A stretch of 64,000 nt of DNA from the NCBI GenBank assembly GCA_048634875.1, contig JAIVZN010000001.1, positions 3,858-67,857 on the forward strand, written 5' to 3'. The position numbers and the translations under genes were made by a program. Shown here one piece after another: positions 3,916 through 64,000 of this stretch (the stretch's first letter is position 1; every line of letters starts with the position of its first letter). Below the pieces are notes generated by a model, which saw only the letters and a program-made list of their open reading frames with translations, was not told the origin of the DNA and ran no database searches. Source of the stretch: Deltaproteobacteria bacterium. GTDB lineage: Bacteria; CG03; SLGR01; JBDRKX01.

Positions 3916-3931
3916 AAATTCATTTCAACCG

Positions 3932-4030
3932 CAAATAAATCCTTTATTGAGACCTAAATGATGTATTTTTTGCGACTTGTGACTTTTTATAGAAACTATG
4001 AAAACTTGTTTGACCCGGCTCATGTCTGTT
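3932..4030. repeat. Dispersed intergenic hairpin repeat, family A, copy 1 (left half plus extension variant)
   Basis: taaatcctttattgagacctaaatgatgtattttttgcgacttgtgactttttat... shared with copies at 9043, 51567, 59077. Confidence 0.85.
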
Positions 4031-9042: not shown

Positions 9043-9215
9043 CCATTTATTGAGTCCTAAATGATGCATTTTTTGCGAGCTTTAAGACTTTTGCCAAAGG
9101 CAAAAAGTCTCCGGAGCAACAAAATACATTTTTAGGGCTCAATTATTTTCACCCAGCTCCTGTACGCAGGAGCTGGATTCATCCGCTTTTGTGCTGGCTC
9201 GCCGGCATGTCCGTT
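9043..9215. repeat. Dispersed intergenic hairpin repeat family A, copy 2 (both halves plus extra hairpins)
   Basis: ccatttattgagtcctaaatgatgcattttttgcgagctttaagacttttgccaaaggcaaaaagtctccggagcaacaaaatacatttttagggctcaattattttcaccc, then cagctcctgtacgcaggagctg hairpin; region 8940-9040 also holds hairpin gggcttgataaatcaagccc. Confidence 0.85.
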
Positions 9216-29282: not shown

Positions 29283-29594
29283 TTATGCCTTTATCTCCAC
29301 CCCGATGCCTGAAGGAAGCTCTAATTTACCAAGTTCATCAACTGTTACCGAAGTCGGATTATGTATGTAAATTAATCTCTTATGTATCCGCATTTCAAAT
29401 TGATCCATACCCCTTTTATCCACATGAGGCGACCTCAGTACTGAATATTTCTTTATTCTTGTCGGAAGCAGTATCGGGCCGGAAACCCTGGAGCCTGTTC
29501 TGGTAATTGTATCTACTATGCGCTTGACAGATTTATCAAGCATCCTGTGGTCATATCCCTTTAATTTAATCTGTATTTTCTGTTCAACCGCCAT
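29283..29594 (-). CDS. rpsJ: 30S ribosomal protein S10
   Basis: 103 aa. Confidence 0.95.
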
Positions 29595-30784
29595 TATTCA
29601 ACTACTTCAGCTACAACACCCGCTCCAACCGTATGTCCGCCTTCCCTTATCGCAAACCTGAGTCCCTGCTCCATTGCCACTGCCTGTATTAACTCGCCCT
29701 CTATATCCACATTATCGCCGGGCATCACCATCTCCCTGCCTTCAGGTAACTTTAACACTCCTGTCACATCTGTCGTACGAAAATAAAATTGAGGCCTGTA
29801 TCCGCTGAAAAACGGAGTGTGTCGCCCGCCTTCTTCCTTGCTTAATATATATACCTTCCCCTTAAACTTCTTATGCGGTGTTATCGTCTTAGGCGCCGCT
29901 ATCACCTGACCCCTCTCTATCTGCGTCTTATCTACACCTCGAAGCAACACTCCTATGTTGTCGCCGGCCTGCGCCTCTTCCATCTCCTTGCGAAACATCT
30001 CTACTCCTGTTACCACGGTCTCCTTACTGTCCATTAATCCCACTATCTCTACCTTGTCCGATACCTTTACCTTACCCCTCTCTACCCTGCCTGTCGCTAC
30101 TGTACCGCGCCCTGTTATTGAAAATACATCTTCTACGCTCATCAAAAACGGCTTATCAACTTCCCTGTCAGGCTGGGGTATATTCGCATCCAGCGCTTCC
30201 ATTAATTCCCCTATTACTTTACCTTCATCGCTATCCGCCTCACTATTTAACGCCTTTAACGCAGAACCCTTTATTATTGGTATATCATCTCCGGGAAACT
30301 CATATTTGTTTAATAATTCCCTTATCTCTAACTCTACTAACTCCAACAACTCAGGATCATCTACCTGATCTACCTTATTCATAAATACTACCATTGCAGG
30401 CACGCCTACCTGCCTCGCTAACAATATATGTTCCTTTGTCTGAGGCATCGGACCATCTGCCGCCGACACCACCAGTATCGCGCCGTCCATCTGCGCCGCT
30501 CCTGTTATCATATTCTTTATATAATCCGCATGACCGGGACAGTCTATATGCGCATAATGCCTGTTCTCTGTCTCATATTCCACATGCGCTGTCGCTATCG
30601 TTAAACCCCTCTCCTTTTCCTCGGGCGCATTGTCTATCTCATCTACATTCTTGCAGGATGCCAGTCCTTTGGAACTTAAATATCTCAATATCGCTGCTGT
30701 TAATGTCGTCTTCCCGTGATCTACATGCCCTATTGTCCCTACATTAACATGAGGCTTTGTCCTCTGAAATTTTTCCTTTGCCAT
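29594..30784 (-). CDS. tuf: Elongation factor Tu (copy 1, str-operon copy)
   Basis: 396 aa GHVDHGKTT...; ~98% identical at nt level to second copy at 45306-46496. Confidence 0.97.
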
Positions 30785-36800: not shown

Positions 36801-37969
36801 CTTAATATAAAAGGGCTGTATAATTCAAGAGCCATTTCCTTGGGCAAACCGCATTGATTTAACTTAAGGTGCGGCCCTACAACTATAACCGATCTACCTG
36901 AATAATCCACTCTCTTACCTAATAAGTTTCTTCTAAATCTCCCCTGTTTTCCTTTTATGGTATCCGAAAGAGACTTTAACGGACGATTCCCTGTTCCTGT
37001 TACTACCTTACCGCGCGCGCCATTTTGTATAAGAGCATCTACTGCCTCCTGCAGCAATCTCTTTTCATTGTGCAGCATCACAGTCGGCGCGCCCATTTCG
37101 GAAATCTGCTTCAGGCGGTTATTACGGTTTATAATTCTTCTATATAAATCATTTAAATCTGAAGAAGCAAATTTCCCGCCTTTCAGCGGAACAAGCGGCC
37201 TTAAATCGGGAGGGATTACAGGGACGCATGTCATTAACATATTTGTCGGAACATTACCTGACTTTATAAAATCCTCAATAACTTTTAATCTGCGTCTCCA
37301 GTGCCTTCTCTGTCCCTTCCCGCCCTTGTCGGATTCAAGATTCCTGCGAATATCTTTTGCAATTTTCTTTAAATCTACCGTTTTTAGAAGTTTATAAATA
37401 GCTTCTCCGCCAATCAGAGCCTCAAAATCAGTGCCATATTCCTCTGTAAGCACCTGATAATCCTCTATAGAAATTAAATCCCCTACCTTCAACCTTTTAT
37501 CGCCAAGCCTTATACTTTTATCTACAACTTTTGTTATTATATATGCTGCATAATAGACAATTCTCTCAACATCCGATCTTTTTAAATCTAAAATCATACC
37601 TATTCTTGAAGGCGGCTTGCGCATATACCAGATATGGGCAACAGAAACAGCTAATTCAATATGTCCCATTCTTTCACGGCGCACTTCCTTTTCCGTTACT
37701 TCAACACCGCATCTTTCACATACCACACCCCTGTGGCGGGGATATTTATAGCGACCGCAATTACATTCATAATCCTTTATAGGTCCAAAAATCCTTTCAC
37801 AAAACAAACCGTCTCTTTCAGCTCTGAATGTCCTGTAATTTATAGTTTCCGGTTTCTTAACTTCCCCATATGACCATTCCCTGATATCTTTAGGAGATGC
37901 AATCATTAATTTAATAGAATTAAAATTATCGTAATTTAATTTCTCAACTGCCTTTTCTTTTTTATTCAT
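33848..37969 (-). CDS. rpoC: DNA-directed RNA polymerase beta' subunit
   Basis: 1373 aa; NADFDGD catalytic motif, zinc-binding CxxC segments. Confidence 0.97.
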
Positions 37970-40900
37970 TTTCTTTCCTGTTTTCCAGCAGTACTTTCAT
38001 GCCTAATCCCTGCAGTTCCTTTACCAGTACCTTGAAGGACTCAGGAATACCCGGTTCCTGTATCTCCTCGCCTTTTATTATTGCTTCATGCACTGCAGTT
38101 CTTGCTTTGACATCGTCACTTTTATAAGTTAACAGTTCCTGTAATAAATAAGCTGAGCCATATCCTTCCATTGCCCAGACTTCCATTTCTCCAAATCTCT
38201 GCCCGCCAAACATAGCTTTTCCGCCTAAAGGCTGGCGGGTTATTAATGAATAAGGCCCTGTAGCACGAGCGTGCATTTTATCTTCAGCCATATGTTCTAA
38301 CTTCATTACGTACATGTAACCAATAGTTACATTATCCCAGAGAGCTTCTCCTGTTCTTCCGTCGTAAAGTTTAGTTCTGCCAGTTGCAGGAAGTTTATTC
38401 TTTTTTAACATCTGCTTCACATCTTCCTCAGTTGCTCCATCAAATACCGGTGTAACTACCTGAATATTTTCCTGTTTTGCAGCCCAGCCGATATGCGCTT
38501 CAAGAATCTGTCCGACATTCATCCTTGAAGGCACACCTAATGGATTTAAAATTACATCAATTGGAATACCGTCTTCTGTGTACGGCATATCTTCTTCAGG
38601 GAGAATTCTTGAAATAACACCTTTATTTCCGTGCCTGCCTGCAACTTTATCACCGACAGAAATTTTTCTCATGCATGCAATATAAACTTTCACCTTCTTT
38701 GAAACCATAACAGGAAACTCATCACCTCTATCAATAGTAGAAATTTCCTTCTTTTTATCTTTTTCCAATTTCATTATAAGAGACTGAGTCAATGCACCAT
38801 TTCGTTCCTTACGGGTTTCATATTCTTTCTTTGAAAGTTTTTTCTCCTTTACCTGATGGTACATCTTCTGGGTCATTGAGTTTCTTTCTCTTCTCAGTTC
38901 TTCTATTTGTTTATTATATTTATCTTCTATTTGCTGGATTAATTTCTGTCTCTTCTTTTTTGTCAGGCTGCCTTTCCGCTGGAATATTTCAACTCTTATT
39001 ACCTTTCCTTCCACACCGGGACGAACCCTGAGCGAAGTATCTTTTGTCTCCTCAGCCTTTTTACCAAATATTGTCTTTAAAAGTCTTACTTCTGGAGTGT
39101 ATCTCGTTTTGCCTTTTGGTGTAATTTTCCCTACAAGAATATCATTTGCCCGCACATGTGACCCGACCCTGACTATCCCATTTTCATCCAAGTTCCCTAA
39201 TTTATGCTGGCTGACATTCGGGATATCACGGGTAATTTCTTCACTGCCCATTTTCAAATCCCTTGCTTCTACTTCTTCCTCACGAATATGTATAGATGTG
39301 AACATATCCTCTTTAACAAGTTTCTCTGATATTAAAACAGCATCTTCAAAATTGTATCCTTCCCATGACATAAAAGCAACTAATAGATTCCTGCCTAATG
39401 CAAGCTGTCCTTTTGCAGTAGCAGGTCCATCTGCAAGAATATCACCTTTTTTTACTTTAGCGCCTTTTGAAACAACCGGTATCTGGTTACAATTTGTATC
39501 CTGGTTACTCCTTACATATTTTTTTAATTCATATATATCTAAAGCTTCAGGAGAAATTGTCTTTTCATGGTTCTTATGCCACACTACAATGCGGCCGCCA
39601 TCTACATAAATTACTTCCCCTGCCCTCCTTGCAGTTACTAATGCGCCTGAATTTTCAGCAACAATACTCTCCATGCCAGTAGCTACTATAGGTGGTTCAG
39701 TTATCATTAATGGGAGTGCCTGCCTCATCATATTTGAACCCATAAGAGCGCGGTTAGCATCATCGTGTTCAAGAAATGGTACCAACCCTGCAGAAGCTCC
39801 TACCATCTGTCTGGATGAAATATCAACATAATTAATATCCTTTTTCTTAACCAGCGGGAAAGTGCCCCTCTGTCTTGTAATTATTAAACCATCCTGTAAA
39901 TTACCATTCTTATCTACGCTATTGGCAGGTGCTACTATATTTTCATCTTCAATATCAGCAGTAAGATATTCTATTTTATTTGTAACCTTACCTGCCTCAA
40001 CTTTTCTATATGGAGTTTCTATTAACCCATATTTATTTATTCTTGCATAAATGGCAAGAGAAGTCCTGAGTCCTATATTTGCGCCTTCCGGTGTTTCTAT
40101 TGGACATATCCTGCCGTAATGGGTATGATGAACATCTCTGACCTCAAATCCCGCCCTCTTACGACTTAAACCTCCCGGCCCGAGCGCAGAAGTCCTTCGT
40201 TTATGGGTAAGTTCTGCCAGCGGATTTGTCTGAGCCATAAACTGCGATAATTCACCTGTGCCAAAAAACTTATTAATTGCCGCAGAAATTGGCACAGGAT
40301 TTATAAGTGACGACGGTGTAGCATCTTCCACGGAGAGTAAATTCATCTTACTCTTTACTAAACGGGTAAGATGACTAATACCACGTCTCAACTGATTTTC
40401 AAGCTGTTCTCCTACTGTCCTCACCCTGCGGTTTCCAAGATGATCAATATCATCTACCTCTCCGCCAATACCATTATTTAACATAATTATATATTTCATT
40501 GTGCATATTATATCTGCGGGCACAAGATTTCTCTTATTCTTATCAGATAACGGAATATTATCTTTTTTATATATCTCATTCAATTTTTTGTTTATTTTAA
40601 ATCTTCCAACTTTTGTAAGATCATATTTTTTTATTCCTTTAAAAAATAAAGTATCAAAATATTCCTCGGCCGCTTCAGGAGTTATATACTGCTGTGACCG
40701 TAGAATTTTAAAAATTTCAAAAATTGCATCCATTTTAGAAGTAATACTGTCTTTATTTAATGTAAGATGTATAGTCTGGTCATTAACAGTCTTTCCAGTC
40801 TGCCACTGGTTAAAATCAGCAAGCTCTACTTTTCTCACGCCATATTTTCTCCACTTGGTCAATATGGCTTTATTTATTACCTGGTTCGGTCTTCCAAGGA

Positions 40901-41684
40901 ATTCATTCTCAGCCTCTTTACTTCCTGCTGCATCCGGCTCTGTTACAATAATTTTCCCAATTAACTGGTCGCTTCTTTTTCCCCTGATATCAACTATCTT
41001 TGTTTTATAAAACAATCTCAAAATATCTTCATCTTTTTCCCAGCCCATAGCCTTAAGTATAACAGTTGCAGGAACTTTACGCTTGCGGTTAATCCGCATA
41101 AATAATTCATTTTGATTGTTATATTCAAATTCTATCCAGGAACCGCGATACGGCACTATTCTTCCTACATAAAGAGATTTTCCAAGATTAGAAATACCTT
41201 TCTTTTCATCTTCTTCAAAATTAACACCAGGGGATCTATGTAATTGATTTACTACAACCCTTTCCACGCCATTTATTATAAAGGTTCCTGTTTCAGTCAT
41301 CATAGGCAAATCAAACAGGTATATCTCTTCTTCCCTGATTTCCGGTTTTGCTCTACCTTCTAATTTAACCTCCAGAGAAAATTTAACTTTTAAAGGAGAA
41401 GCATAAGTTATATCTCTTTTAACTGATTCATTAAGGTCGTAAGTTGACTCTTCCACCTTATAACTTACAAAATTTAACTTCATACTTCCGTCTATGTTTT
41501 CCACAGGGAAAATATCCTCAAACAATCCATGAAGACCCTGTGATTTCATTTCTCCGCCTTTAGCATCTTTCTGTAAAAATTCATCATATGATTTCTGCTG
41601 AACCTGAATCAAATCAGGAAGTTCAAGCAATGACCGCCTTGAGGAAAAATCTCTCTGTTTATCTGGAATATCAAAATGTAACAT
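37962..41684 (-). CDS. rpoB: DNA-directed RNA polymerase beta subunit
   Basis: 1240 aa; conserved beta regions incl. GEMEVWAMEGYG. Confidence 0.97.
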   Translation of the reverse strand: MLHFDIPDKQRDFSSRRSLLELPDLIQVQQKSYDEFLQKDAKGGEMKSQGLHGLFEDIFPVENIDGSMKLNFVSYKVEESTYDLNESVKRDITYASPLKVKFSLEVKLEGRAKPEIREEEIYLFDLPMMTETGTFIINGVERVVVNQLHRSPGVNFEEDEKKGISNLGKSLYVGRIVPYRGSWIEFEYNNQNELFMRINRKRKVPATVILKAMGWEKDEDILRLFYKTKIVDIRGKRSDQLIGKIIVTEPDAAGSKEAENEFLGRPNQVINKAILTKWRKYGVRKVELADFNQWQTGKTVNDQTIHLTLNKDSITSKMDAIFEIFKILRSQQYITPEAAEEYFDTLFFKGIKKYDLTKVGRFKINKKLNEIYKKDNIPLSDKNKRNLVPADIICTMKYIIMLNNGIGGEVDDIDHLGNRRVRTVGEQLENQLRRGISHLTRLVKSKMNLLSVEDATPSSLINPVPISAAINKFFGTGELSQFMAQTNPLAELTHKRRTSALGPGGLSRKRAGFEVRDVHHTHYGRICPIETPEGANIGLRTSLAIYARINKYGLIETPYRKVEAGKVTNKIEYLTADIEDENIVAPANSVDKNGNLQDGLIITRQRGTFPLVKKKDINYVDISSRQMVGASAGLVPFLEHDDANRALMGSNMMRQALPLMITEPPIVATGMESIVAENSGALVTARRAGEVIYVDGGRIVVWHKNHEKTISPEALDIYELKKYVRSNQDTNCNQIPVVSKGAKVKKGDILADGPATAKGQLALGRNLLVAFMSWEGYNFEDAVLISEKLVKEDMFTSIHIREEEVEARDLKMGSEEITRDIPNVSQHKLGNLDENGIVRVGSHVRANDILVGKITPKGKTRYTPEVRLLKTIFGKKAEETKDTSLRVRPGVEGKVIRVEIFQRKGSLTKKKRQKLIQQIEDKYNKQIEELRRERNSMTQKMYHQVKEKKLSKKEYETRKERNGALTQSLIMKLEKDKKKEISTIDRGDEFPVMVSKKVKVYIACMRKISVGDKVAGRHGNKGVISRILPEEDMPYTEDGIPIDVILNPLGVPSRMNVGQILEAHIGWAAKQENIQVVTPVFDGATEEDVKQMLKKNKLPATGRTKLYDGRTGEALWDNVTIGYMYVMKLEHMAEDKMHARATGPYSLITRQPLGGKAMFGGQRFGEMEVWAMEGYGSAYLLQELLTYKSDDVKARTAVHEAIIKGEEIQEPGIPESFKVLVKELQGLGMKVLLENRKENE

Positions 41685-45141: not shown

Positions 45142-45306
45142 TTATCCCTTAATTGACTTATGCACCGTATGCTTTCTACAAAACCTACAGTGCTTCTTTA
45201 ATTCTAACTTATCCTGTCTGTGAAGTTTATTTCTTCTGTATGTATAGTTTCGGCGTTTACACTCCTGACATTCAAGATGCTGAACTATCCTATCCTTTTT
45301 TGCCAT
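45142..45306 (-). CDS. rpmG: 50S ribosomal protein L33 (not in ORF track)
   Basis: [54 protein letters not shown]; zinc-ribbon L33; start overlaps tuf stop (TAATG). Confidence 0.9.
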   Translation of the reverse strand: MAKKDRIVQHLECQECKRRNYTYRRNKLHRQDKLELKKHCRFCRKHTVHKSIKG

Positions 45307-46496
45307 TATTCAATTACCTCAGCTACAACACCAGCTCCAACCGTATGTCCGCCTTCCCTTATCGCAAACCTGAGTCCCTGCTCCATTGCCACTGCCTGTA
45401 TTAACTCGCCCTCCATATCCACATTATCTCCTGGCATCACCATCTCCCTGCCCTCTGGTAACTTTAACACTCCTGTCACATCTGTCGTACGAAAATAAAA
45501 TTGTGGCCTGTATCCGCTGAAAAACGGTGTGTGTCGCCCGCCTTCTTCTTTGCTTAATATATATATCTTCCCCTTGAACTTCGTGTGCGGTGTTATCGTC
45601 TTAGGCGCCGCTATCACCTGCCCCCTCTCTATCTGCGTCTTATCTACACCGCGCAGCAACACTCCTATGTTGTCGCCGGCCTGCGCCTCTTCCATCTCCT
45701 TGCGAAACATCTCTACTCCTGTTACCACGGTCTCCTTGCTTTCCATTAATCCCACTATCTCTACCTTGTCCGATACCTTTACCTTACCCCTCTCTACCCT
45801 GCCTGTCGCTACTGTACCGCGCCCTGTTATTGAAAATACATCTTCTACGCTCATCAAAAACGGCTTATCAACTTCCCTGTCAGGCTGGGGTATATTCGCA
45901 TCCAGCGCTTCCATTAATTCCCCTATTACTTTACCTTCATCGCTATCCGCCTCACTATTTAACGCCTTTAACGCAGAACCCTTTATTATTGGTATATCAT
46001 CTCCGGGAAACTCATATTTGTTTAATAATTCCCTTATCTCTAACTCTACTAACTCCAACAACTCAGGATCATCTACCTGATCTACCTTATTCATAAATAC
46101 TACTATTGCTGGCACGCCTACCTGCCTCGCTAATAATATATGTTCCTTTGTCTGAGGCATCGGACCATCTGCCGCCGACACCACCAGTATCGCGCCATCC
46201 ATCTGCGCCGCTCCTGTTATCATGTTCTTTATATAATCCGCATGACCGGGACAGTCTATATGCGCATAATGCCTCAAGTCTGTCTCATATTCCACATGCG
46301 CTGTCGCTATCGTCAATCCCCTCTCCTTTTCCTCGGGCGCATTGTCTATCTCATCTACATTCTTACAGGATGCCAGTCCTTTGGAACTTAAATACTTCAA
46401 TATCGCTGCCGTTAATGTCGTCTTCCCGTGATCTACATGCCCTATTGTCCCTACATTAACATGAGGCTTTGTCCTCTGAAATTTTTCCTTTGCCAT
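45306..46496 (-). CDS. tuf: Elongation factor Tu (copy 2, tufB-like, downstream of tRNA cluster)
   Basis: 396 aa; differs from copy 1 at ~6 residues. Confidence 0.97.
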
Positions 46497-47141: not shown

Positions 47142-47203
47142 TTGCCAAATTTCTTCCAAATTCTTCCAAATTCTTGACAATTATAAATAAATGTATTAAT
47201 ATT
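47142..47203 (+). promoter_or_regulatory. Divergent plus-strand promoter TTGACA-17-TAATAT preceded by three direct CCAAATTCTT repeats; predicted near-leaderless start for the M23 peptidase gene
   Basis: gccaaatttcttccaaattcttccaaattcTTGACAattataaataaatgtatTAATATtttattgttcATG. Confidence 0.5.
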
Positions 47204-47212
47204 TTATTGTTC

Positions 47213-48127
47213 ATGTTAAAAAGTTTTAAAATTTGGTTCAGTAAAAAAATTACAATAATATTTGCTCCAAGCCATGGCAGCAGGTCATTTCATATACAAT
47301 TATCATATCCATTTACAACATTTCTCCTGTTGTTAATTGTATCAATATTTACTGTAGGCGGATATTTTTCAAAGGTTTATATCAGCTATATTCATGCAAT
47401 TGAAGCAAATAAAAAATTAGTTGAAGAGAAAAACCTATATTCAACAAAAGTTGAAGAAACCCTTAATATGCTCCAGAAAGTTAAAAACATTGAAGTTCGC
47501 CTAAAAGGCATGCTTGGGATGAAATCAACAAGAAATATTATTGAAAACTATCATATAGGCGGAGCGCATTCAAAGGATAAAGTAAACCTTCCTATTGAGA
47601 TTAATTCTATCTATGAACAAAACCGTTTTAATTCAAACATAAATGAAGTAAAGAGAGAAACCTGGGAACAGCAGCAAAATATTAAATACATAGAAAATTT
47701 TATTAATAAAAAAAGAAATATGCTTCTGTCCACTCCTTCTATCTGGCCTGTTTTTGGCTATATGACAAGCGGTTATGGCTGGAGAACACATCCCATACTC
47801 AAAAGGAGGGAATATCACAGAGCAATAGATATATACAGCGTTCTTGAAAGGCGTTCCCCAATAAGAGCAACTGCGCAAGGCAGAATAATTGTTGCAGGCT
47901 GGGCAGGTTCATATGGCAAAACAATAATAATAGACCATGGTAATGGATTTTCTACAAGATACTGCCATTGTTCTAAAATACTGGTAAAACAGGGAGAAAG
48001 AGTTGAACATGGACAAATAATTGCATATATCGGGAATACAGGGCTTTCTACAGGGCCGCATCTGCATTATGAAGTATGGTACAGGGGAAAACCTGTAAAC
48101 CCCCTGCGTTTTGTTAAAGAGAGGTAA
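47213..48127 (+). CDS. M23 family (LytM-domain) metallopeptidase with N-terminal TM helix (ORF track begins at TTG 47174; ATG 47213 preferred)
   Basis: HxxxD...HLHYE zinc-peptidase motifs (RAIDIY..., GPHLHYEVW). Confidence 0.85.
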   Translation: MLKSFKIWFSKKITIIFAPSHGSRSFHIQLSYPFTTFLLLLIVSIFTVGGYFSKVYISYIHAIEANKKLVEEKNLYSTKVEETLNMLQKVKNIEVRLKGMLGMKSTRNIIENYHIGGAHSKDKVNLPIEINSIYEQNRFNSNINEVKRETWEQQQNIKYIENFINKKRNMLLSTPSIWPVFGYMTSGYGWRTHPILKRREYHRAIDIYSVLERRSPIRATAQGRIIVAGWAGSYGKTIIIDHGNGFSTRYCHCSKILVKQGERVEHGQIIAYIGNTGLSTGPHLHYEVWYRGKPVNPLRFVKER

Positions 48128-48130
48128 CTT

Positions 48131-48538
48131 TTGAACAAATTAAATAAAAAGATATTCGGTAAAATAGAAACTCTAATCAGTCAGGATACAAAGATAGAAG
48201 GCACAATTGAAGCATCAGGAACACTTAGAATTGATGGAACTGTAATAGGCGGTATCAGTAAGGCTTCAGGCGTTATAATCGGCGCTACAGGAATTATAGA
48301 AGGAAATATTAATGCGCAAGGAGTAAGCCATGCAGGAAAAGTAATTGGAAATATAAATGCTGAATCCTCACTTGAGTTAATGCATGAATCTGTTTTACAG
48401 GGTGACATAAGAACAGCCCAGCTTTCCATAGCTGAAGGCGCTCACTTTGATGGCTCCTGCTCAATGATTAGTGAAAAGAACAATGAAGCATCGGGGTTTT
48501 CCAAAGAAACTCTAGAAACAACAGAAGAACCTACCTGA
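48131..48538 (+). CDS. Bactofilin (DUF583) cytoskeletal protein
   Basis: 135 aa beta-helical bactofilin repeats (GTIEASGTLRIDGTVIGG...). Confidence 0.8.
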   Translation: MNKLNKKIFGKIETLISQDTKIEGTIEASGTLRIDGTVIGGISKASGVIIGATGIIEGNINAQGVSHAGKVIGNINAESSLELMHESVLQGDIRTAQLSIAEGAHFDGSCSMISEKNNEASGFSKETLETTEEPT

Positions 48539-50537: not shown

Positions 50538-51560
50538 TCATTTTATCAGTCTGCCGCATTCTTCCATGACCAGTTTTCTTAATTTATCTTTCTCTTCAGT
50601 CTCCATGAAGGCAGCTTCAACACCATTCATTATAATCTCAACAAGTTCACTTATAGAAATTCCTATCTCCATTGCCTTTTCAAATTCGTATGTTAAATCT
50701 ATTCCGCTTACACCCCTGTCATCTGTGTTTAATGTAACTTTAATGCTACTTGCAATAAATTTTTTTACCGGATGAGTATTATAATCTTTAACAACCTGTG
50801 TATGTATATTTGATGTAAGACATATTTCAAACGGGATTCTTTTTAAAGCCATTTCACGCATTAATTTTTCATCTTCAACAAGTGTAACACCATGCCCTAT
50901 TCTATCAGCGCCTATCTGTACAGCTTCCCTGATATATTCAGGACCTGCTGCTTCGCCTGCATGAATAGTTACAGATACTCCCTCATTTTTGCATATCTGA
51001 ATTGGTTTTTCAAAATCCCTCAGTGGGAATTTATTCTCATCGCCAGCAACATCAATGCCAGAGACACCCTCATTCCTTAATTCCACCGCACATTTTGCAG
51101 CCTGGATTGAATCCTCCAGCGGAGTTCCGCGATACAAACACAGCAGCACCCCGCACTTTATGGGAAATTCTTTTTCACCCTTTTTAACTCCTCTTAGTAC
51201 TGCTTCCACAACATCAGGTATGGGGAATTTTTCAGTTTTCTGAAGCACAGGAGCAAACCTTATCTCAAGATACTTCACATTTTCTTCAGCGCAATCCCTG
51301 CATAATTCATATGATATCCTCTCCTGTGCATATGGGTTTGTCAAAAGCGGGTAAAAGACTTCAAATCTCTTTAGAAAGTCGCTTAAACATTTACAATTAA
51401 TGGACACTCTTACAAATTTTCTCAAATCCTTTACATTGTCAGCAGGCAAAGAAAAATTCTGCATTTTAGCAAGCTCCAAAATCGTAGAAGTTCTTATGGA
51501 GCCATCTAAATGACAATGTAAATCAACTTTAGGTAATTTTCTTATAATTTCCTCTTTCAC
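50538..51560 (-). CDS. add: Adenosine deaminase (GTG start)
   Basis: 340 aa; LPKVDLHCHLDGS metal-binding signature. Confidence 0.88.
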   Translation of the reverse strand: MKEEIIRKLPKVDLHCHLDGSIRTSTILELAKMQNFSLPADNVKDLRKFVRVSINCKCLSDFLKRFEVFYPLLTNPYAQERISYELCRDCAEENVKYLEIRFAPVLQKTEKFPIPDVVEAVLRGVKKGEKEFPIKCGVLLCLYRGTPLEDSIQAAKCAVELRNEGVSGIDVAGDENKFPLRDFEKPIQICKNEGVSVTIHAGEAAGPEYIREAVQIGADRIGHGVTLVEDEKLMREMALKRIPFEICLTSNIHTQVVKDYNTHPVKKFIASSIKVTLNTDDRGVSGIDLTYEFEKAMEIGISISELVEIIMNGVEAAFMETEEKDKLRKLVMEECGRLIK

Positions 51561-51566
51561 TTGTAA

Positions 51567-51700
51567 ATAAATCCTTTATTGAGACCTAAATGATGTATTT
51601 TTTGCGACTTGTGACTTTTTAGTCTCCGGAGCAACAAAATGTATTTTTAGGGCTCGATTATTTTCACCCACTTTTGTGCCGGCGAGCCGGCTTGTCCGTT
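51567..51700. repeat. Repeat family A copy 3 (compact, both halves)
   Basis: taaatcctttattgagacctaaatgatgtattttttgcgacttgtgactttttagtctccggagcaacaaaatgtatttttagggctcgattattttcaccc...; its terminal AAAGGA supplies the SD for add. Confidence 0.85.
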
Positions 51701-59035: not shown

Positions 59036-59076
59036 ATAAAATACTTACCTTTCGACATAATTCCTTTCATGTGTAA

Positions 59077-59292
59077 GTAAATCCTTTATTGAGACCTAAA
59101 TGATGTATTTTTTGCGACTTGGGACTTTTTAGTGAAACTATGCCGTTAAAAAACTAAAATTTGTTTGACTCAGCTCTTGCCTGCAAGGGCTGGGGAGTTT
59201 TTTAGTTTTAGGCATAGTTTCATATGCCAAAGGCAAAAAGTCTCCGGAGCAACAAAATACATTTTTAGGGCTCAATTATTTTCATCCTCTTT
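59077..59292. repeat. Repeat family A copy 4 (extended variant with nested hairpin insert); right end replaced by group II intron
   Basis: Shares both halves with copies 2 and 3; diverges from them at ...attattttcat|cctctttgag. Confidence 0.85.
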
Positions 59293-59524
59293 GAGTGAAT
59301 CTGTAGAATAGAGAATTGGCGTAGTAGTTTAGGTTAAGCCTATTTGTTTCTGCCCCTTTCGTCTGGCAGTGCCTCAATATCTTATCCATGCTCTATCTCC
59401 AACTCCCCCTCATCAAACCATGCAGGAAGTTCTCCTTCACACGGCTTTCCGATAACCACTCGTCTAAAAGCTTTCACTATTTAGCCACTTTCTATTGGTA
59501 GTTAAATAATATATCCCCAACACC

Positions 59525-59773
59525 TTATACAGAATAACGGTCTGGATATTTGTTAAATCCAAATCCTTTCTTCTGTTTGCGTTTTTGTATAAAACGTCTA
59601 ACTTTATTCTCTGTGTAATATCGGAGTTTACCAAACCATTTTGAGGAATTTCCTTCAATGAAGTAGTTAGCCCACCCTCTTATTACAGGATTAAGCCTTG
59701 AAACAATTACCTCTGCCTTTTCTGGTATTCGGTGATTGGTTATCTTTCTTATCCTGTTTCTGATTACACTCAT
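59525..59773 (-). pseudogene. Group II intron maturase (X/GIIM) domain in a different frame from the RT ORF; no En domain
   Basis: 82 aa; LNPVIRGWANYF hallmark; separated from RT ORF by a ~45-nt frame change. Confidence 0.75.
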
Positions 59774-59818
59774 AGCTTTAGCTGATGGAAAGGATATGAT
59801 ATACCTTATCTTCTTTCT

Positions 59819-60769
59819 TTAATCATATACCTTCTTAAAACTAAAGCCAAGAAAGGTGAATTTGTCTTTCTCCATATCCAGTATTTTTGTCTTCTCCTTA
59901 TTTAGCTTTAAGTTTAATCCCTTAATTACTTTAATTAAGGTCTCCCATATTTCCTGTGGATACCTACAAGATAGAATGACAAAATCATCTGCATACCTTA
60001 TGAGATGAGCAGCAAGTTTGGATTCATATCTTTTCTTCCAGATTTTATCTAACTCATTAAGATAGATATTCGCCAGAAGAGGCGATATTATCCCTCCTTG
60101 TGGAGTGCCAGATATGTTATTTCTTAAGATTGCCTTTTCACTTACTACTCCTGCTGTTAGCCATTGTTTTATTAGCCTGAGAATGTTCTTATCACATACC
60201 CTTTTAGCTATTAGTTCTAACAAACGGTTATGGGATATAGTGTCAAAGTATGAGCTTAAGTCAGCGTCAACTACATATCTATAGCCCCTATTCAATAGCC
60301 TTTTAATTATCTTCAAGGCTTGATGGGCTGAACGCTTCGGTCTAAATCCATATGAACAATCCTGAAATTCAGCTTCAAAAATAGGTTCTATTACTATCTT
60401 TACTGCCATCTGTGCCACTCTATCCTTGACAGTAGGAATTCCTAAAGGTCTTTTAGTTTTATCAGGTTTGGATATATAGACTCTTTTGACCTTGTCGGGT
60501 CCATAAACCTTCTTCTTTAGTTCTCTTTGGATTCCTTTAAGAAATTCTTCTACCCCCATTTGCACAATCTCTTCAATCGTTTTGTCATCTATCCCTGCAC
60601 ACCCTTTATTACTGCAAACCCTTCTCCAACTCTCCACAAAAACATCCCACCGATAGACCTTATCATACAGAGTATAAAAACGCTTTACCTCCTTTCGCTT
60701 TGCCTTTAGATATAGCCCCCTCTGAAATTCCCGAACCTTTTCTCGGGGAGTTAATAGCCTTTTTGGCAA
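59819..60769 (-). CDS. Group II intron reverse transcriptase (RT domain; ORF terminates before maturase domain)
   Basis: 316 aa; ...PQGGIISPLLANIYL..., IRYADDFVIL, GFSFKK. Confidence 0.9.
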   Translation of the reverse strand: MPKRLLTPREKVREFQRGLYLKAKRKEVKRFYTLYDKVYRWDVFVESWRRVCSNKGCAGIDDKTIEEIVQMGVEEFLKGIQRELKKKVYGPDKVKRVYISKPDKTKRPLGIPTVKDRVAQMAVKIVIEPIFEAEFQDCSYGFRPKRSAHQALKIIKRLLNRGYRYVVDADLSSYFDTISHNRLLELIAKRVCDKNILRLIKQWLTAGVVSEKAILRNNISGTPQGGIISPLLANIYLNELDKIWKKRYESKLAAHLIRYADDFVILSCRYPQEIWETLIKVIKGLNLKLNKEKTKILDMEKDKFTFLGFSFKKVYD

Positions 60770-61795
60770 TCTCCCAGTCCTTCCTTCGGGGGCATAGTTA
60801 ATAATGCCCCTTCACTCTGTCTTAGTTTTGTTGTCTCTTGACTTCATAAGTTCGCCTAAAAAACAGCCATTTAGGCTGTTTTTCTTTATGTCTCCGTTTA
60901 TGAGTATATCCGACCACCTTAATAACCTCCTTTGACTTCGGATTTCCCTTATACAAAGAAGCCTTTCGTTATCAAGGCTCTCCCAAGTTCCCTTCGTAAT
61001 CTTTCTCAGCATACCGCCCCTGATACCCCGAGTAGAGTCACCCCTTCTTACTCCTGTTAATCCAAGATGACTGTCGGGCTTCCCTCAAACATGAAAAGGT
61101 CGCCTCTACTTCTTAATGAACTAACGAGTCTACTTATAGGTTCATTCACATTACGGTCTGCTGTTTTGCGTCTCCCAACTAAATCGGGATTTGTCGAGTG
61201 GCTAAAGCTTCGAGATTAGTCCCTTATCTTCACTCCTCGCTACATAACCGAACAGGAAATTATTATGACTGACACCTTTCAGTCAGTTAGATTACAAAGA
61301 GCTTTTCTTGACATGCCATGTCCCTTTCTTATTATTGTTATATAATACATAGTTTTTAATTGCTTATCAAATTTTTTACCAACAATATCTCCGACAATAT
61401 AAATCAATGGGACAATATATACTATTTTAATCAAAGTTATTTTAGCACAAATTTTTCTTATGGGCAAATATGAGTCTTATCCCAAGACTGGATGGGTCAA
61501 GATATTTATTATTAAGGGTATGTTCAACATTACGAAAGATATTTGAAATATATGAGCAAGCGAAAAGACGATGTTGGCAATTACAATTAGAGTTTCAATA
61601 ATTGGAATAGTTGTTAATAACTTTTTGATATACAGGGATAAGGGGGATAAAAGGACAAGTGCATCCAAAAGTCTGGGTTTTGCCTGAATATATAGGGAAA
61701 TCTGGTTAGTACGGTGTAATTCCTTGACTTTTATTCCAAAGAAAGAAATATAGGATAGATTTTTTCAGCTAAAAAGCTGATTTTGGCGGAAGCCA

Positions 61796-61811
61796 GGAAC
61801 CAATATCGGTT
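61796..61811. promoter_or_regulatory. Perfect 5-6-5 palindrome GAACCaatatcGGTTC ~95 nt upstream of the secreted-repeat-protein gene (candidate operator)
   Basis: Seen directly; followed by AT-rich -10-like tataat at 61854-61859 and strong SD AAGGAGGA before ATG 61905. Confidence 0.35.
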
Positions 61812-61904
61812 CTTGGATCGTGAATTTATATTATACAATGATATAAAAAAGAAGTATAATTAATATGTATTTTCAAGGTTTTATAGATTTTAAGGAGGAT
61901 AATC

Positions 61905-64000
61905 ATGAGAATAAATAAGTTCTTTCCGAGAACGTTGGCATTTATTATCGCAGTACTGTTCTGTATCAGCGCTACTTCGTCATCGGCTGTACCAAGTTTA
62001 ATTAATTTTCAGGGCGTACTTAAGGATTCTGACGGTAAAGCTGTGGCTGGAAGCAAGAGTATTGTCTTTGATATTTATACCAAGGAAAGCGGCGGGAGTG
62101 CTGTATGGAGTGTAACGGAAGTTGTTTCACTTGATTCCAAAGGCTTATACAGCGTGATGCTTGATGTGAGCGAGCTGGATTTTGATGTCCAGTACTGGCT
62201 GGGGGTAGATGTGGCCGGAGATGGCGAGATGACCCCGAGATACAAATTGGCATGTACAGGATATGCGATGAATGCAAAGAAACTGGACGGCCATGTTGCG
62301 TCGTATTACCTCAACTGGTCTAATATAACTAATATGCCTGAGGAATTTTCTGACGGAGATGATATCGGAGCAGGTGAATCAATACTTGCTGTGCAGTTAA
62401 ATGACGTTAATATCTCAAGTCCAACTGCTGCGATTGATTTCAATTCAAGTCATTTCAGTGTGACAAAGGAGGGGAGCTATGAGTCTGATGTAAGCATAAC
62501 TACTGCCCCCTATGCCCTGATGGCTGGAACAGCGAGTTATGTCTCGGGTAATATGGACGCAAATACTCTGGACGGGCTGGACAGTGCAGCATTCCAGCTT
62601 GCTCTGGATACGCCGGCATGGAAGGCGGCTGACAGCGCAAAGTTAAACGGCAGGGCTTATACTGCTTATGTGTCTACAGATGCCATAGATCAGGTTATCG
62701 GAGGGACAAAGACCTTTGTTGCCCACCCGAAAATAGCTGTATATACTGCACCAATTGCTAATGAAGAATATGCTCCCAAGCAATATGTAGATGACAGTGC
62801 TGTGGCCGGAGCTGCTGTAAAGAGTGCCACTAACACGTTTACCGGACAGAATACTTTTGTGAATATGGTCACTGTTTCAAGTGATGTTCTTGTGACAGGA
62901 GGGCTTTCCGTGACCGGCCAGGGCGGATATTCTATTCAGACAAGTTCCGGGATTAAAGTGGGCGGATCGATAAATACGGGGGAGGATGGGACCGGATATG
63001 ATATTAACTTTTACGGAGATAGTTCCGGCGGCCGTTTTTTATGGGATGAAGCAAAAATGGCATTAAGAGCCGGCATAGACTCTGACGGGACTCACTGGGA
63101 TAATGATAATGTCGGTTCGCAGTCTCTTGCTACAGGCAGCAATTGTATTGCCAAGGGACAGTGCGCTGTAGCAATGGGTCAAGATTCCCACGCGCTTTAT
63201 CCTGCTTCTTTTGCTGTGGGAGGCAATGCGTATGCAATCAATAATTATGCAGTTGCAATGGGAGTTAATACTGTTGCTTTCGGACAGCAGTCATTCGCTA
63301 CTGGAGGGGCTACTTTAGCCAAGGGTATTTCTTCTACAGCAATGGGAGACAGTACTGTCGCCGGAGGAGATTATTCTTTTGCTGCGGGCAGAAAGTCAAG
63401 CGCAACAGCCCGGGGCGCATTTGCCATCTCAGATTCGGTGGAAGCACAGTTCCTGGTCGATACCCAGGATGCGTTCGGCGCAAGGTTTCAGGGGGGATAC
63501 AGTTTAACCGGTGGTGAGGTGAGTATTTCCAGTAATGTTGCGGTAAACGGTAAGCTTACAGTATCTGAAGCTGCGGGGTATTCGGGAGACATTGTCGTAG
63601 TATCAACCGGGGCAGTGAATCTGTTCCGGGTTAATTCATCCGGTGATGTATATGCGCATAAGGCTTTTCATGATACAGGAGCGGATTACGCGGAATGGTT
63701 CGAGAAGGAAGGCAGTATAGCAGAGAATGATGTAGTGGGCTTGAACGTCCTGACCGGGAAGGCAAGGAAGTACCTGAGAGGTGATGTTGTTTTAGGTGTC
63801 TGTTCATCAAATCCGGGTTTTGTGGGGAATAGGGATATAAATAAGAATGAAGAAGATATGAAGAGTAATCATGTACTTGTCGGGCTTATGGGCCAGCTGG
63901 ATTTTAATAAGGAACAGGTGGAGATTGCAGACGGCAGAGTGATAACAAAAGACGGGAAACAAATCGGATACCTTTTATCTAACGGGAATATGTTTTTAAG
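61905..64000 (+). CDS. Secreted tail-fibre-like / YadA-head-like beta-repeat protein, 5' portion (continues beyond window; not in ORF track)
   Basis: ATG with AAGGAGGA SD; signal peptide MRINKFFPRTLAFIIAVLFCISATSSSA; N-terminal INFQGVLKDSDGKAVAG...VFDIYTKESGGSAVWS module; then repeats of SxAxGxxAxAxG type. Confidence 0.7.
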   Translation, partial: MRINKFFPRTLAFIIAVLFCISATSSSAVPSLINFQGVLKDSDGKAVAGSKSIVFDIYTKESGGSAVWSVTEVVSLDSKGLYSVMLDVSELDFDVQYWLGVDVAGDGEMTPRYKLACTGYAMNAKKLDGHVASYYLNWSNITNMPEEFSDGDDIGAGESILAVQLNDVNISSPTAAIDFNSSHFSVTKEGSYESDVSITTAPYALMAGTASYVSGNMDANTLDGLDSAAFQLALDTPAWKAADSAKLNGRAYTAYVSTDAIDQVIGGTKTFVAHPKIAVYTAPIANEEYAPKQYVDDSAVAGAAVKSATNTFTGQNTFVNMVTVSSDVLVTGGLSVTGQGGYSIQTSSGIKVGGSINTGEDGTGYDINFYGDSSGGRFLWDEAKMALRAGIDSDGTHWDNDNVGSQSLATGSNCIAKGQCAVAMGQDSHALYPASFAVGGNAYAINNYAVAMGVNTVAFGQQSFATGGATLAKGISSTAMGDSTVAGGDYSFAAGRKSSATARGAFAISDSVEAQFLVDTQDAFGARFQGGYSLTGGEVSISSNVAVNGKLTVSEAAGYSGDIVVVSTGAVNLFRVNSSGDVYAHKAFHDTGADYAEWFEKEGSIAENDVVGLNVLTGKARKYLRGDVVLGVCSSNPGFVGNRDINKNEEDMKSNHVLVGLMGQLDFNKEQVEIADGRVITKDGKQIGYLLSNGNMFL

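Follow-up and report, generated by a model that had tools for sequence, protein, structure and literature searches.

A probable MAT-like cellular surface fibre, with a YadA-type head and a predicted self-cleaving Peptidase_G2-type chaperone, encoded beside a group II intron

The window, that is, the whole stretch of DNA analysed here, comprises 64,000 nucleotides of a contig filed under Deltaproteobacteria bacterium (assembly GCA_048634875.1, contig JAIVZN010000001.1, positions 3,858 to 67,857 of the forward strand), and our subject is the gene at its 3' end, which encodes a modular, fibre-like protein. The gene forms an uninterrupted plus-strand reading frame from the ATG at 61905 to the end of the window at 64000. 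An exact look-up of protein clusters recovered the complete product, P0073, which has 702 amino acids (aa) and ends in ...SNGNMFLRINQ. Thus, although a first-pass annotation of the same DNA had described a large gene that runs off the window, 698 of the 702 codons lie within it, and just four codons and the stop lie beyond. An orthologue of 695 aa, P0001, is 95% identical to the fibre protein and is found on two short contigs (the loci L003 and L004). The gene, its upstream signals, and the segments of its product are as follows.

61829-61904, plus strand: conserved upstream region of 76 nt, nearly identical in the orthologous loci L003 and L004
61832-61837 (TATACA) and 61855-61860 (TATAAT), plus strand: sigma-70-like promoter candidate with a 17-nt spacer, score 10/12
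61892-61899, plus strand: Shine-Dalgarno sequence AAGGAGGA, 5 nt before the ATG, kept in L003 and L004
61905-61988, plus strand: Sec-type signal peptide, residues 1-28, with the predicted cut between SSA and VP
61989-62279, plus strand: N-terminal beta-sandwich domain (N-domain), residues ~29-125, homologous to the Bdellovibrio MAT N-domain
62280-63092, plus strand: shaft segments, residues ~126-396, with the NWSNITNMPEEFSDGDD...TTAPYAL module and GGTKTF and TNTFTGQNTF motifs
63093-63428, plus strand: YadA-head-type beta-roll, residues 397-508, eight 14-residue turns in strict period
63429-63683, plus strand: neck, residues 509-593, conserved with P0002, P0004, and P0006
63684-64000, plus strand: Peptidase_G2-type intramolecular chaperone and autocleavage domain, residues 594-702, the last four residues beyond the window
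63684-63686, plus strand: codon of D594, which with E597 forms the predicted cleavage motif

The N-terminus of the product looks like a Sec signal peptide, as had been proposed earlier: a basic n-region, MRINKFFPR, is followed by a hydrophobic core and by SSSA, an A-x-A-like site, with the putative cut before VP. The AlphaFold model places a helix at residues 7-21 and the beginning of a beta domain at residue 32, and homologues share this N-terminal layout, with a mature end that likewise starts at 'VP'. A lipoprotein reading was rejected because there is no lipobox. The domain that follows is modelled with a predicted local distance difference test score (pLDDT) of 93-98 over its core, and comparison of this model with the PDB and BFVD returned only generic immunoglobulin (Ig)-like matches. 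Its identity emerges from profile comparisons. A profile of the INFQGVLKDSDG...VFDIYTKESGGSAVWS module, which had been picked out from the letters of the sequence, retrieves, at E<=1e-5, no fewer than 1497 protein clusters from many phyla, establishing it as a real and widespread domain. All of the 22 diverse members of the N-domain alignment match the NCBIfam model NF053851 (Bdello_MAT_N), with a best E of 1.6e-12; therefore, the homology of the N-domain to that of the Bdellovibrio MAT proteins is real. Judged by its sequence, the window protein is a relative that stands outside the curated Bdellovibrio MAT subfamily. The shaft that succeeds the N-domain is likewise assembled from recurrent pieces: P0005, a protein from Elusimicrobia, contains three copies of the NWSNITNMPEEFSDGDD...TTAPYAL module (E 1e-21 to 1e-24), and P0002, P0004, and P0008 share other portions of the shaft.

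The SxAxG-type repeats of the distal half, noted in the first reading of the sequence, resolve into eight turns in a strict 14-residue register. They match the Pfam YadA_head family (PF05658, E 3.8e-8) and, in the PDB, the head of BpaC (7o23, E 2.2e-8) and, weakly, that of YadA (1p9h). The neck is modelled as beta strands at lower confidence. These head repeats, together with a further match to the head of BimA, are what might be expected of a trimeric autotransporter adhesin of the YadA/Hia type, exported through its own C-terminal beta-barrel. However, Pfam and NCBIfam scans of the protein detected no YadA_anchor or translocator domain, the NCBIfam models of trimeric autotransporter adhesins score 19-24 bits against cut-offs of 750-800, and the complete C-terminus is a soluble chaperone domain of the Peptidase_G2 type, the protein ending 109 residues after the cleavage motif. 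An autotransporter is thus exceedingly improbable, and of the protein classes proposed at the outset, a secreted, tail-fibre-like, and YadA-head-like protein holds up, whereas a trimeric autotransporter does not.

The C-terminal domain is identified by several convergent observations. The Pfam family PF11962 (Peptidase_G2, 'IMC autoproteolytic cleavage domain') is matched at 27.1 bits, above its cut-off of 25, when residues 546-702 are searched alone, and the four closest homologues also pass it. A five-sequence profile matches the pre-neck appendage protein gp12 of phage phi29, such that the start of 3gqh, the cleaved C-terminal chain of gp12, which was crystallised on its own and opens with DFAEYFE, is aligned to D594-YAEWFE of the fibre protein, and an alignment of 31 sequences shows no variation at either D594 or E597. 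The model of the domain has a pLDDT above 90, and a Foldseek search of the PDB returned 3suc as the only match at E<=0.001 (2.6e-4), followed by 3gqh at 2.0e-3, each with a probability of 1.00. Mature gp12* ends at residue 691 (PMC6542822), and the gp12 chaperone domain is absent from virions (PMC9863714); therefore, the aligned Asp is the first residue after the cut, a position for which PDB chain boundaries and PMC6542822 provide the basis. By homology, self-cleavage of the fibre protein is predicted to occur between A593 and D594 after trimer assembly. An S74 chaperone had been among the candidates for this terminus, and while an autoproteolytic chaperone is indeed present, it is of the phi29 gp12 or Peptidase_G2 type and not of the S74 type, a domain that the Pfam scan did not find in the fibre protein. 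An HMMER scan of 1.84 billion representatives recovered 4034 proteins with the C-domain at E<=1e-3, where it lies nearly always at the very C-terminus of proteins that range from 130 to more than 2700 residues.

This same domain raises the question of a phage origin, namely, that the gene encodes a tail fibre or spike in a prophage remnant or a part of a contractile injection system. Phage tail spikes typically bear a C-terminal chaperone of this kind, and viral contigs commonly encode one (at least 304 confirmed stretches); one annotated phage tail fibre is 40% identical to the head region; and a group II intron, itself a mobile element, and two synteny breakpoints lie just upstream of the gene. 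The remaining evidence points the other way. The protein has a Sec signal peptide, and a scan of viral contigs for a single 8-residue pattern of the N-domain (F[DS]xQYWLG) found no viral relative. PHROGs yields two weak matches, both to families of unknown function, and across 50,697 phage records, only one phage, Verrucomicrobia phage P8625 (two records), matches, and does so in the head repeats only. No phage or injection-system genes are present upstream in the window, in L003, or in the more distant loci L009 and L010, and where phage tail genes were to be looked for downstream of the gene, L003 has none and presents an ordinary surface-protein context instead. A prophage or injection-system setting, as entertained by the first-pass annotation, is consequently a most improbable reading.

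The wider surroundings are those of an otherwise ordinary chromosome. Upstream of the fibre gene are nucleoside-salvage genes, the window contains five tRNA genes, and its open reading frames (ORFs) include a set sized and ordered like a ribosomal-protein and RNA-polymerase region, of which only RpoB (37962-41684, minus strand) was checked; its named matches at 50-79% identity are all from Elusimicrobia or Elusimicrobiota, and the host is accordingly placed among uncultured Elusimicrobiota. The fibre gene had also been described as the only large plus-strand gene; it is the largest, but other plus-strand genes exist, among them the following.

47174-48127, plus strand: M23 peptidase gene
48131-48538, plus strand: bactofilin gene

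Downstream of the fibre gene, L003 encodes a 187-aa protein with a C-terminal domain (CTD) of the T9SS (type IX secretion system) type, an AP-endonuclease-fold protein, YjbQ, an RsmD-like methyltransferase, a beta-helix protein, and NAD kinase. The protein cluster table holds orthologues, at least 90% identical, of three of these L003 products (the 187-aa protein, NAD kinase, and the AP-endonuclease-fold protein), on a contig that equals in length (79,225 bp) the one with P0073, and, as far as this table indicates, the same gene order very probably continues on the window's own contig. Elsewhere in the window, two minus-strand ORFs of equal length (396 aa; 29594-30784 and 45306-46496) with similar antisense ORF patterns look like a duplicated pair, probably tuf, one standing beside an EF-G-sized ORF and the other beside a tRNA cluster.

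Taken together, we consider it probable that the window carries a chromosomal gene for a cellular surface fibre of broadly the same type as the MAT (mosaic adhesive trimer) proteins of Bdellovibrio. These start with a signal peptide and a conserved, beta-rich N-domain of ~130 aa, continue as a meandering fibre that is trimeric, and finish in either a self-cleaving S74 chaperone or another tip; the same study notes that further domains may serve in other bacteria, whether or not they are predators (PMC10769870). The fibre protein would be made as a precursor and exported by Sec, with removal of the 28-residue signal peptide. It is probably homotrimeric, since solved YadA heads and gp12-type chaperone domains are trimers, and the C-terminal domain of 109 residues would bring the three chains into register, as in phi29 gp12, and then cut itself off between A593 and D594 by means of the invariant Asp594 and Glu597. 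What remained would be a mature fibre of ~565 residues, with the conserved N-terminal beta-sandwich as its putative membrane-proximal end and the YadA-head-like beta-roll and neck as its distal end, which is likely the adhesive part. The variety of C-termini among relatives sharing the N-domain fits such a modular scheme: P0010, P0026, P0042, and P0053 end in S74; P0001, P0002, and P0004 in G2; and P0003 and P0005 in neither. To judge from these architectures, the gene is one that joins a cellular N-terminal domain to modules that are also found in phages.

Several points weigh against this reading. The window protein itself reaches only 24 bits with NF053851, the cut-off of which is 60, and at full length it scores 24.1 bits with PF11962, just below the cut-off of 25. 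The fold matches of the C-domain have low template modelling scores (0.34-0.39), the domain being shorter than that of gp12. With 109 aa, it falls short of the 163 aa of the phi29 domain, and therefore, the details of the mechanism may differ. Moreover, the phi29 gp12 domain binds ATP, which would not be available outside the cytoplasm. The structure models are monomers of what is presumably an intertwined trimer, and we infer export, trimerisation, cleavage, and adhesion all from homology. Finally, a fibre without an autotransporter barrel leaves both the crossing of the outer membrane and attachment to it unaccounted for.

The question of attachment draws attention to the gene that follows the fibre gene in related loci. 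A comparison was made across 88 loci with N-domain fibre genes, drawn from genomes and metagenomes, the metagenomes having been scanned with a seven-sequence N-domain alignment. Among these, a small CTD gene, full-length and on the same strand, is directly adjacent to the fibre gene in 22 loci from several phyla; where the flanks on both sides span at least 700 bp, the figure is 7 out of 30. The examples discussed here all lie outside the window.

L003 4677-5240: gene for the small CTD protein of 187 aa, overlapping the stop codon of the fibre gene
L009 11566-13289: small CTD locus
L010 10147-11876: small CTD locus
L007 4097-4669: small CTD locus
L012 5448-5972: small CTD locus

The L003 protein has a 97%-identical copy, P0463, in the protein cluster table, on a contig as long as that of the window, and its homologues in L009 and L010 (43-48% identity) are encoded after the fibre gene. 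These small proteins have 171-197 aa, appear by their sequences to be secreted, and carry a module of ~45 residues (NGGG...GQ..IG...GFWY) before a T9SS-type CTD, for which that of PorZ is the best match. The gene that follows in L009 and L010 encodes a barrel of the PorV/PorQ family (171 and 160 bits, cut-off 90), and in L003, a weaker relative of this family (46 bits) is encoded upstream of the fibre gene. In a separate arrangement seen in L003 (45-2265) and L011 (1-2981), a gene for a protein of Ig repeats (Big_5) that ends in a T9SS-type CTD is directly followed by a gene for a PorV-like barrel, which suggests that these genomes match individual CTD cargo proteins with their own barrels. 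Fibre genes themselves occur in tandem in 22 of the 88 loci. The tandem arrays of three to five N-domain fibre genes on one strand that are found in L007, L107, L109, L154, L161, and L162 bring to mind Bdellovibrio, which has 21 MAT paralogues.

The CTDs of PorZ and PorU are retained in P. gingivalis, where PorQ and PorV anchor the two proteins at the surface (PMC5562754). The study of Bdellovibrio left the binding partner of the MAT N-domain open (PMC10769870), and a 2025 review names no anchor for MAT fibres (PMC12428579). An adjacent small CTD protein, possibly acting with a PorV/PorQ-like barrel, is a candidate for what fastens such fibres to the cell. It is conceivable, though unlikely, that MAT-like fibres sit on the outer membrane by way of a dedicated anchor of two parts, recruited from the attachment machinery of type IX secretion. 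Its first part would be the small secreted protein, the ~45-residue module of which would dock the N-terminal beta-sandwich of the fibre, and, as its second part, a PorV/PorQ-family barrel would clasp the PorZ-like CTD of the small protein. Against such an anchor, the small gene is paired with the fibre gene in only about a quarter of the loci, and the barrel gene is usually not adjacent. Genes for the anchor partners are not found inside the window. Were the proposal true, it would name the surface element that is bound by the MAT N-domain and would mean that the pairing of a PorV/PorQ barrel with a CTD operates in a phylum for which type IX secretion is not known.

Turning to expression, the strong Shine-Dalgarno sequence reported earlier can be read directly from the DNA. 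The last 76 nt before the ATG are the only upstream stretch that the window has in common with L003 and L004, and a promoter, if there is any, most likely falls within them; transcription would then be driven by the promoter-like site conserved there, which lies 45-73 nt upstream of the ATG. An Rfam scan of 61282-61904 revealed no riboswitch or other RNA family, even at E<=0.1, and no terminator-like sites were found in 61000-62100. Within the conserved segment, for the most part, lies a 10-nt inverted repeat, TTTATATTAT / ATGATATAAA (61825-61847; 90% complementary, 3-nt spacer), which overlaps the -35-like hexamer.

The regulatory element emphasized by the first-pass annotation lies farther upstream. 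It was taken to be a perfect palindrome at 61796-61811, forming an operator; on such a reading, a dimeric regulator would control the fibre gene through it. The palindrome, GAACCAATATCGGTTC, is in fact placed one base further on, at 61797-61812, and is imperfect: it has 5-bp arms and a central ATAT, and seven of its eight pairs are symmetric, with one mismatch. Its intergenic position, 92 nt upstream of the ATG, and its inverted repeat with a symmetric core would suit an operator. However, the window contains 31 16-mers that are as symmetric or more so, and 45% of shuffles of the 623-bp region 61282-61904 contain at least one equal or better 16-mer. Furthermore, the similarity between the window and L003 (96.4% DNA identity) starts at 61829 only, 17 nt downstream of the palindrome, so the palindrome is absent from the orthologous locus; it is also located upstream of the conserved promoter-like site, inside a 357-bp segment, between 61471 and 61829, that has no match in the other loci compared. 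Being no better than chance and not conserved, the palindrome is therefore read as what looks like a chance feature, and its role as an operator is very unlikely. The small hairpin reported beside it exists (61766-61779, one base from the position first given, with a 5-bp stem and a 4-nt loop), but it does not exceed chance, the window having 80 inverted repeats with the same arm and loop lengths; to all appearances, neither element plays a part in transcription. The AT-rich repeat at 61825-61847 may be a better operator candidate than the palindrome, though it too could be due to chance.

The 357-bp segment that contains both elements is bounded by two synteny breakpoints. On the upstream side, the related assembly L001 (99.4% identity) matches the window up to 61471 only, and it ends 282 nt after diverging there. 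On the downstream side, L003 diverges upstream of 61829 and has a PorV-like gene in that place. The two breakpoints represent either a strain-specific rearrangement beside the intron or an assembly join. The intron itself is composed as follows.

59303-61281, minus strand: group II intron of ~2 kb, upstream of the fibre gene
61146-61281, minus strand: intron RNA D1-D4 (Rfam)
59819-60769, minus strand: reverse transcriptase (RT) domain RVT_1, in a separate ORF
59525-59773, minus strand: maturase domain GIIM, in a separate ORF
59303-59449, minus strand: intron D5/6, at 36.7 bits, below the Rfam threshold of 40

Rfam, RVT_1, and GIIM thus agree with the first description of the gene as following a group II intron and a stretch of about 600 bp with small ORFs; the interval between the intron and the fibre gene measures 623 bp and holds short ORFs only. 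The intron protein is split into an RT and a maturase ORF with a stop between them, and the same split is seen in L001 (362 aa and 82 aa); the intron is possibly in decay. A distance of 11 nt separates its 3' end from one copy of a two-part intergenic repeat of ~55-84 nt (59059-59142 and 59225-59292), which is present at four or more places in the window with 89-98% identity (further copies at 3917-4000, 9046-9154, and 51554-51674). The repeat may be a terminator-like element, or one resembling a miniature inverted-repeat transposable element, that is targeted by the intron.

The proximity of an RT gene, 1.1 kb upstream, to a gene for a fibre-like surface protein, a typical target of diversity-generating retroelements (DGRs), brings up the possibility that the fibre gene is the variable target of a DGR served by this RT. 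Yet the RT has a GIIM maturase domain and is situated between the intron D1-D4 and D5/6, which assigns it to the group II intron, in agreement with the earlier remark that its maturase features leave a DGR unsupported. A search for template and variable repeats in the window found no pair, there being no second copy there of any part of the fibre gene, and the C-terminus is a chaperone domain, neither a C-type lectin nor an Ig-like variable region. DGR genes are likewise missing from L003, L009, and L010. A DGR-type variable target has, accordingly, next to no probability.

If the gene is a MAT-like fibre, as we think probable, it would extend the MAT layout to non-predatory phyla, with a phi29-type (G2) self-cleaving chaperone in the place of S74. 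It would also add an Elusimicrobiota example to the cellular surface proteins of 'tail-fibre-like' build, a very large class, mostly unnamed in source records, in which a cellular N-domain is recombined with shaft, head, and chaperone modules that phages have too. Its practical value lies in a precise prediction, namely, cleavage between A593 and D594 that depends on D594 and E597.

Comparison with known systems places each part of the protein in a different relationship. The head shares with those of YadA, BpaC, and Hia the 14-residue repeats of a left-handed beta-roll, with direct sequence matches; unlike these adhesins, the fibre protein has neither a coiled-coil stalk nor a membrane anchor barrel. 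With phi29 gp12 (PDB 3GQ7, 3GQH, 3SUC; MEROPS G2), it shares a C-domain that starts with D-[FY]-A-E-[WY]-F-E at the cleavage point and that takes, by Foldseek, the same fold, and in both proteins this domain closes a beta-structured fibre, presumably trimeric in the window protein. However, the mature part of gp12 is a right-handed beta-helix that degrades teichoic acid, whereas that of the fibre protein is a YadA-like roll, and gp12 is assembled in the cytoplasm onto the virion, whereas the fibre protein appears to be Sec-exported and cellular. The S74 spikes and fibres (K1F endosialidase, the T5 L-shaped fibre; PF13884) present a parallel in which a C-terminal domain likewise drives trimer folding and then removes itself, and many relatives that share the N-domain or the head of the fibre protein carry S74 at the same position, although S74 is an unrelated domain with catalytic residues other than those of G2. 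The likeness to PorZ-PorQ and PorU-PorV (PMC5562754) concerns not the fibre but its neighbour genes, which encode a PorZ-like CTD and, in L009 and L010, a PorV/PorQ-family barrel; the small protein differs in having only the ~45-residue module before its CTD, no other T9SS component was seen, and in the window's genome, the fibre and barrel genes are not neighbours.

The closest parallel remains the Bdellovibrio MAT proteins (Caulton et al. 2024, PMC10769870). The fibre protein is smaller (702 aa versus ~1000), it has a G2 (Asp/Glu) chaperone where theirs is S74 (Ser/Lys), and its host is not a known predator. Nevertheless, the two share a signal peptide directly before a homologous beta-rich N-domain and a long fibre of beta-helical modules with a swappable C-terminus, which in many members is a self-cleaving chaperone; in both cases, these are cellular and not phage genes, with relatives in tandem arrays.

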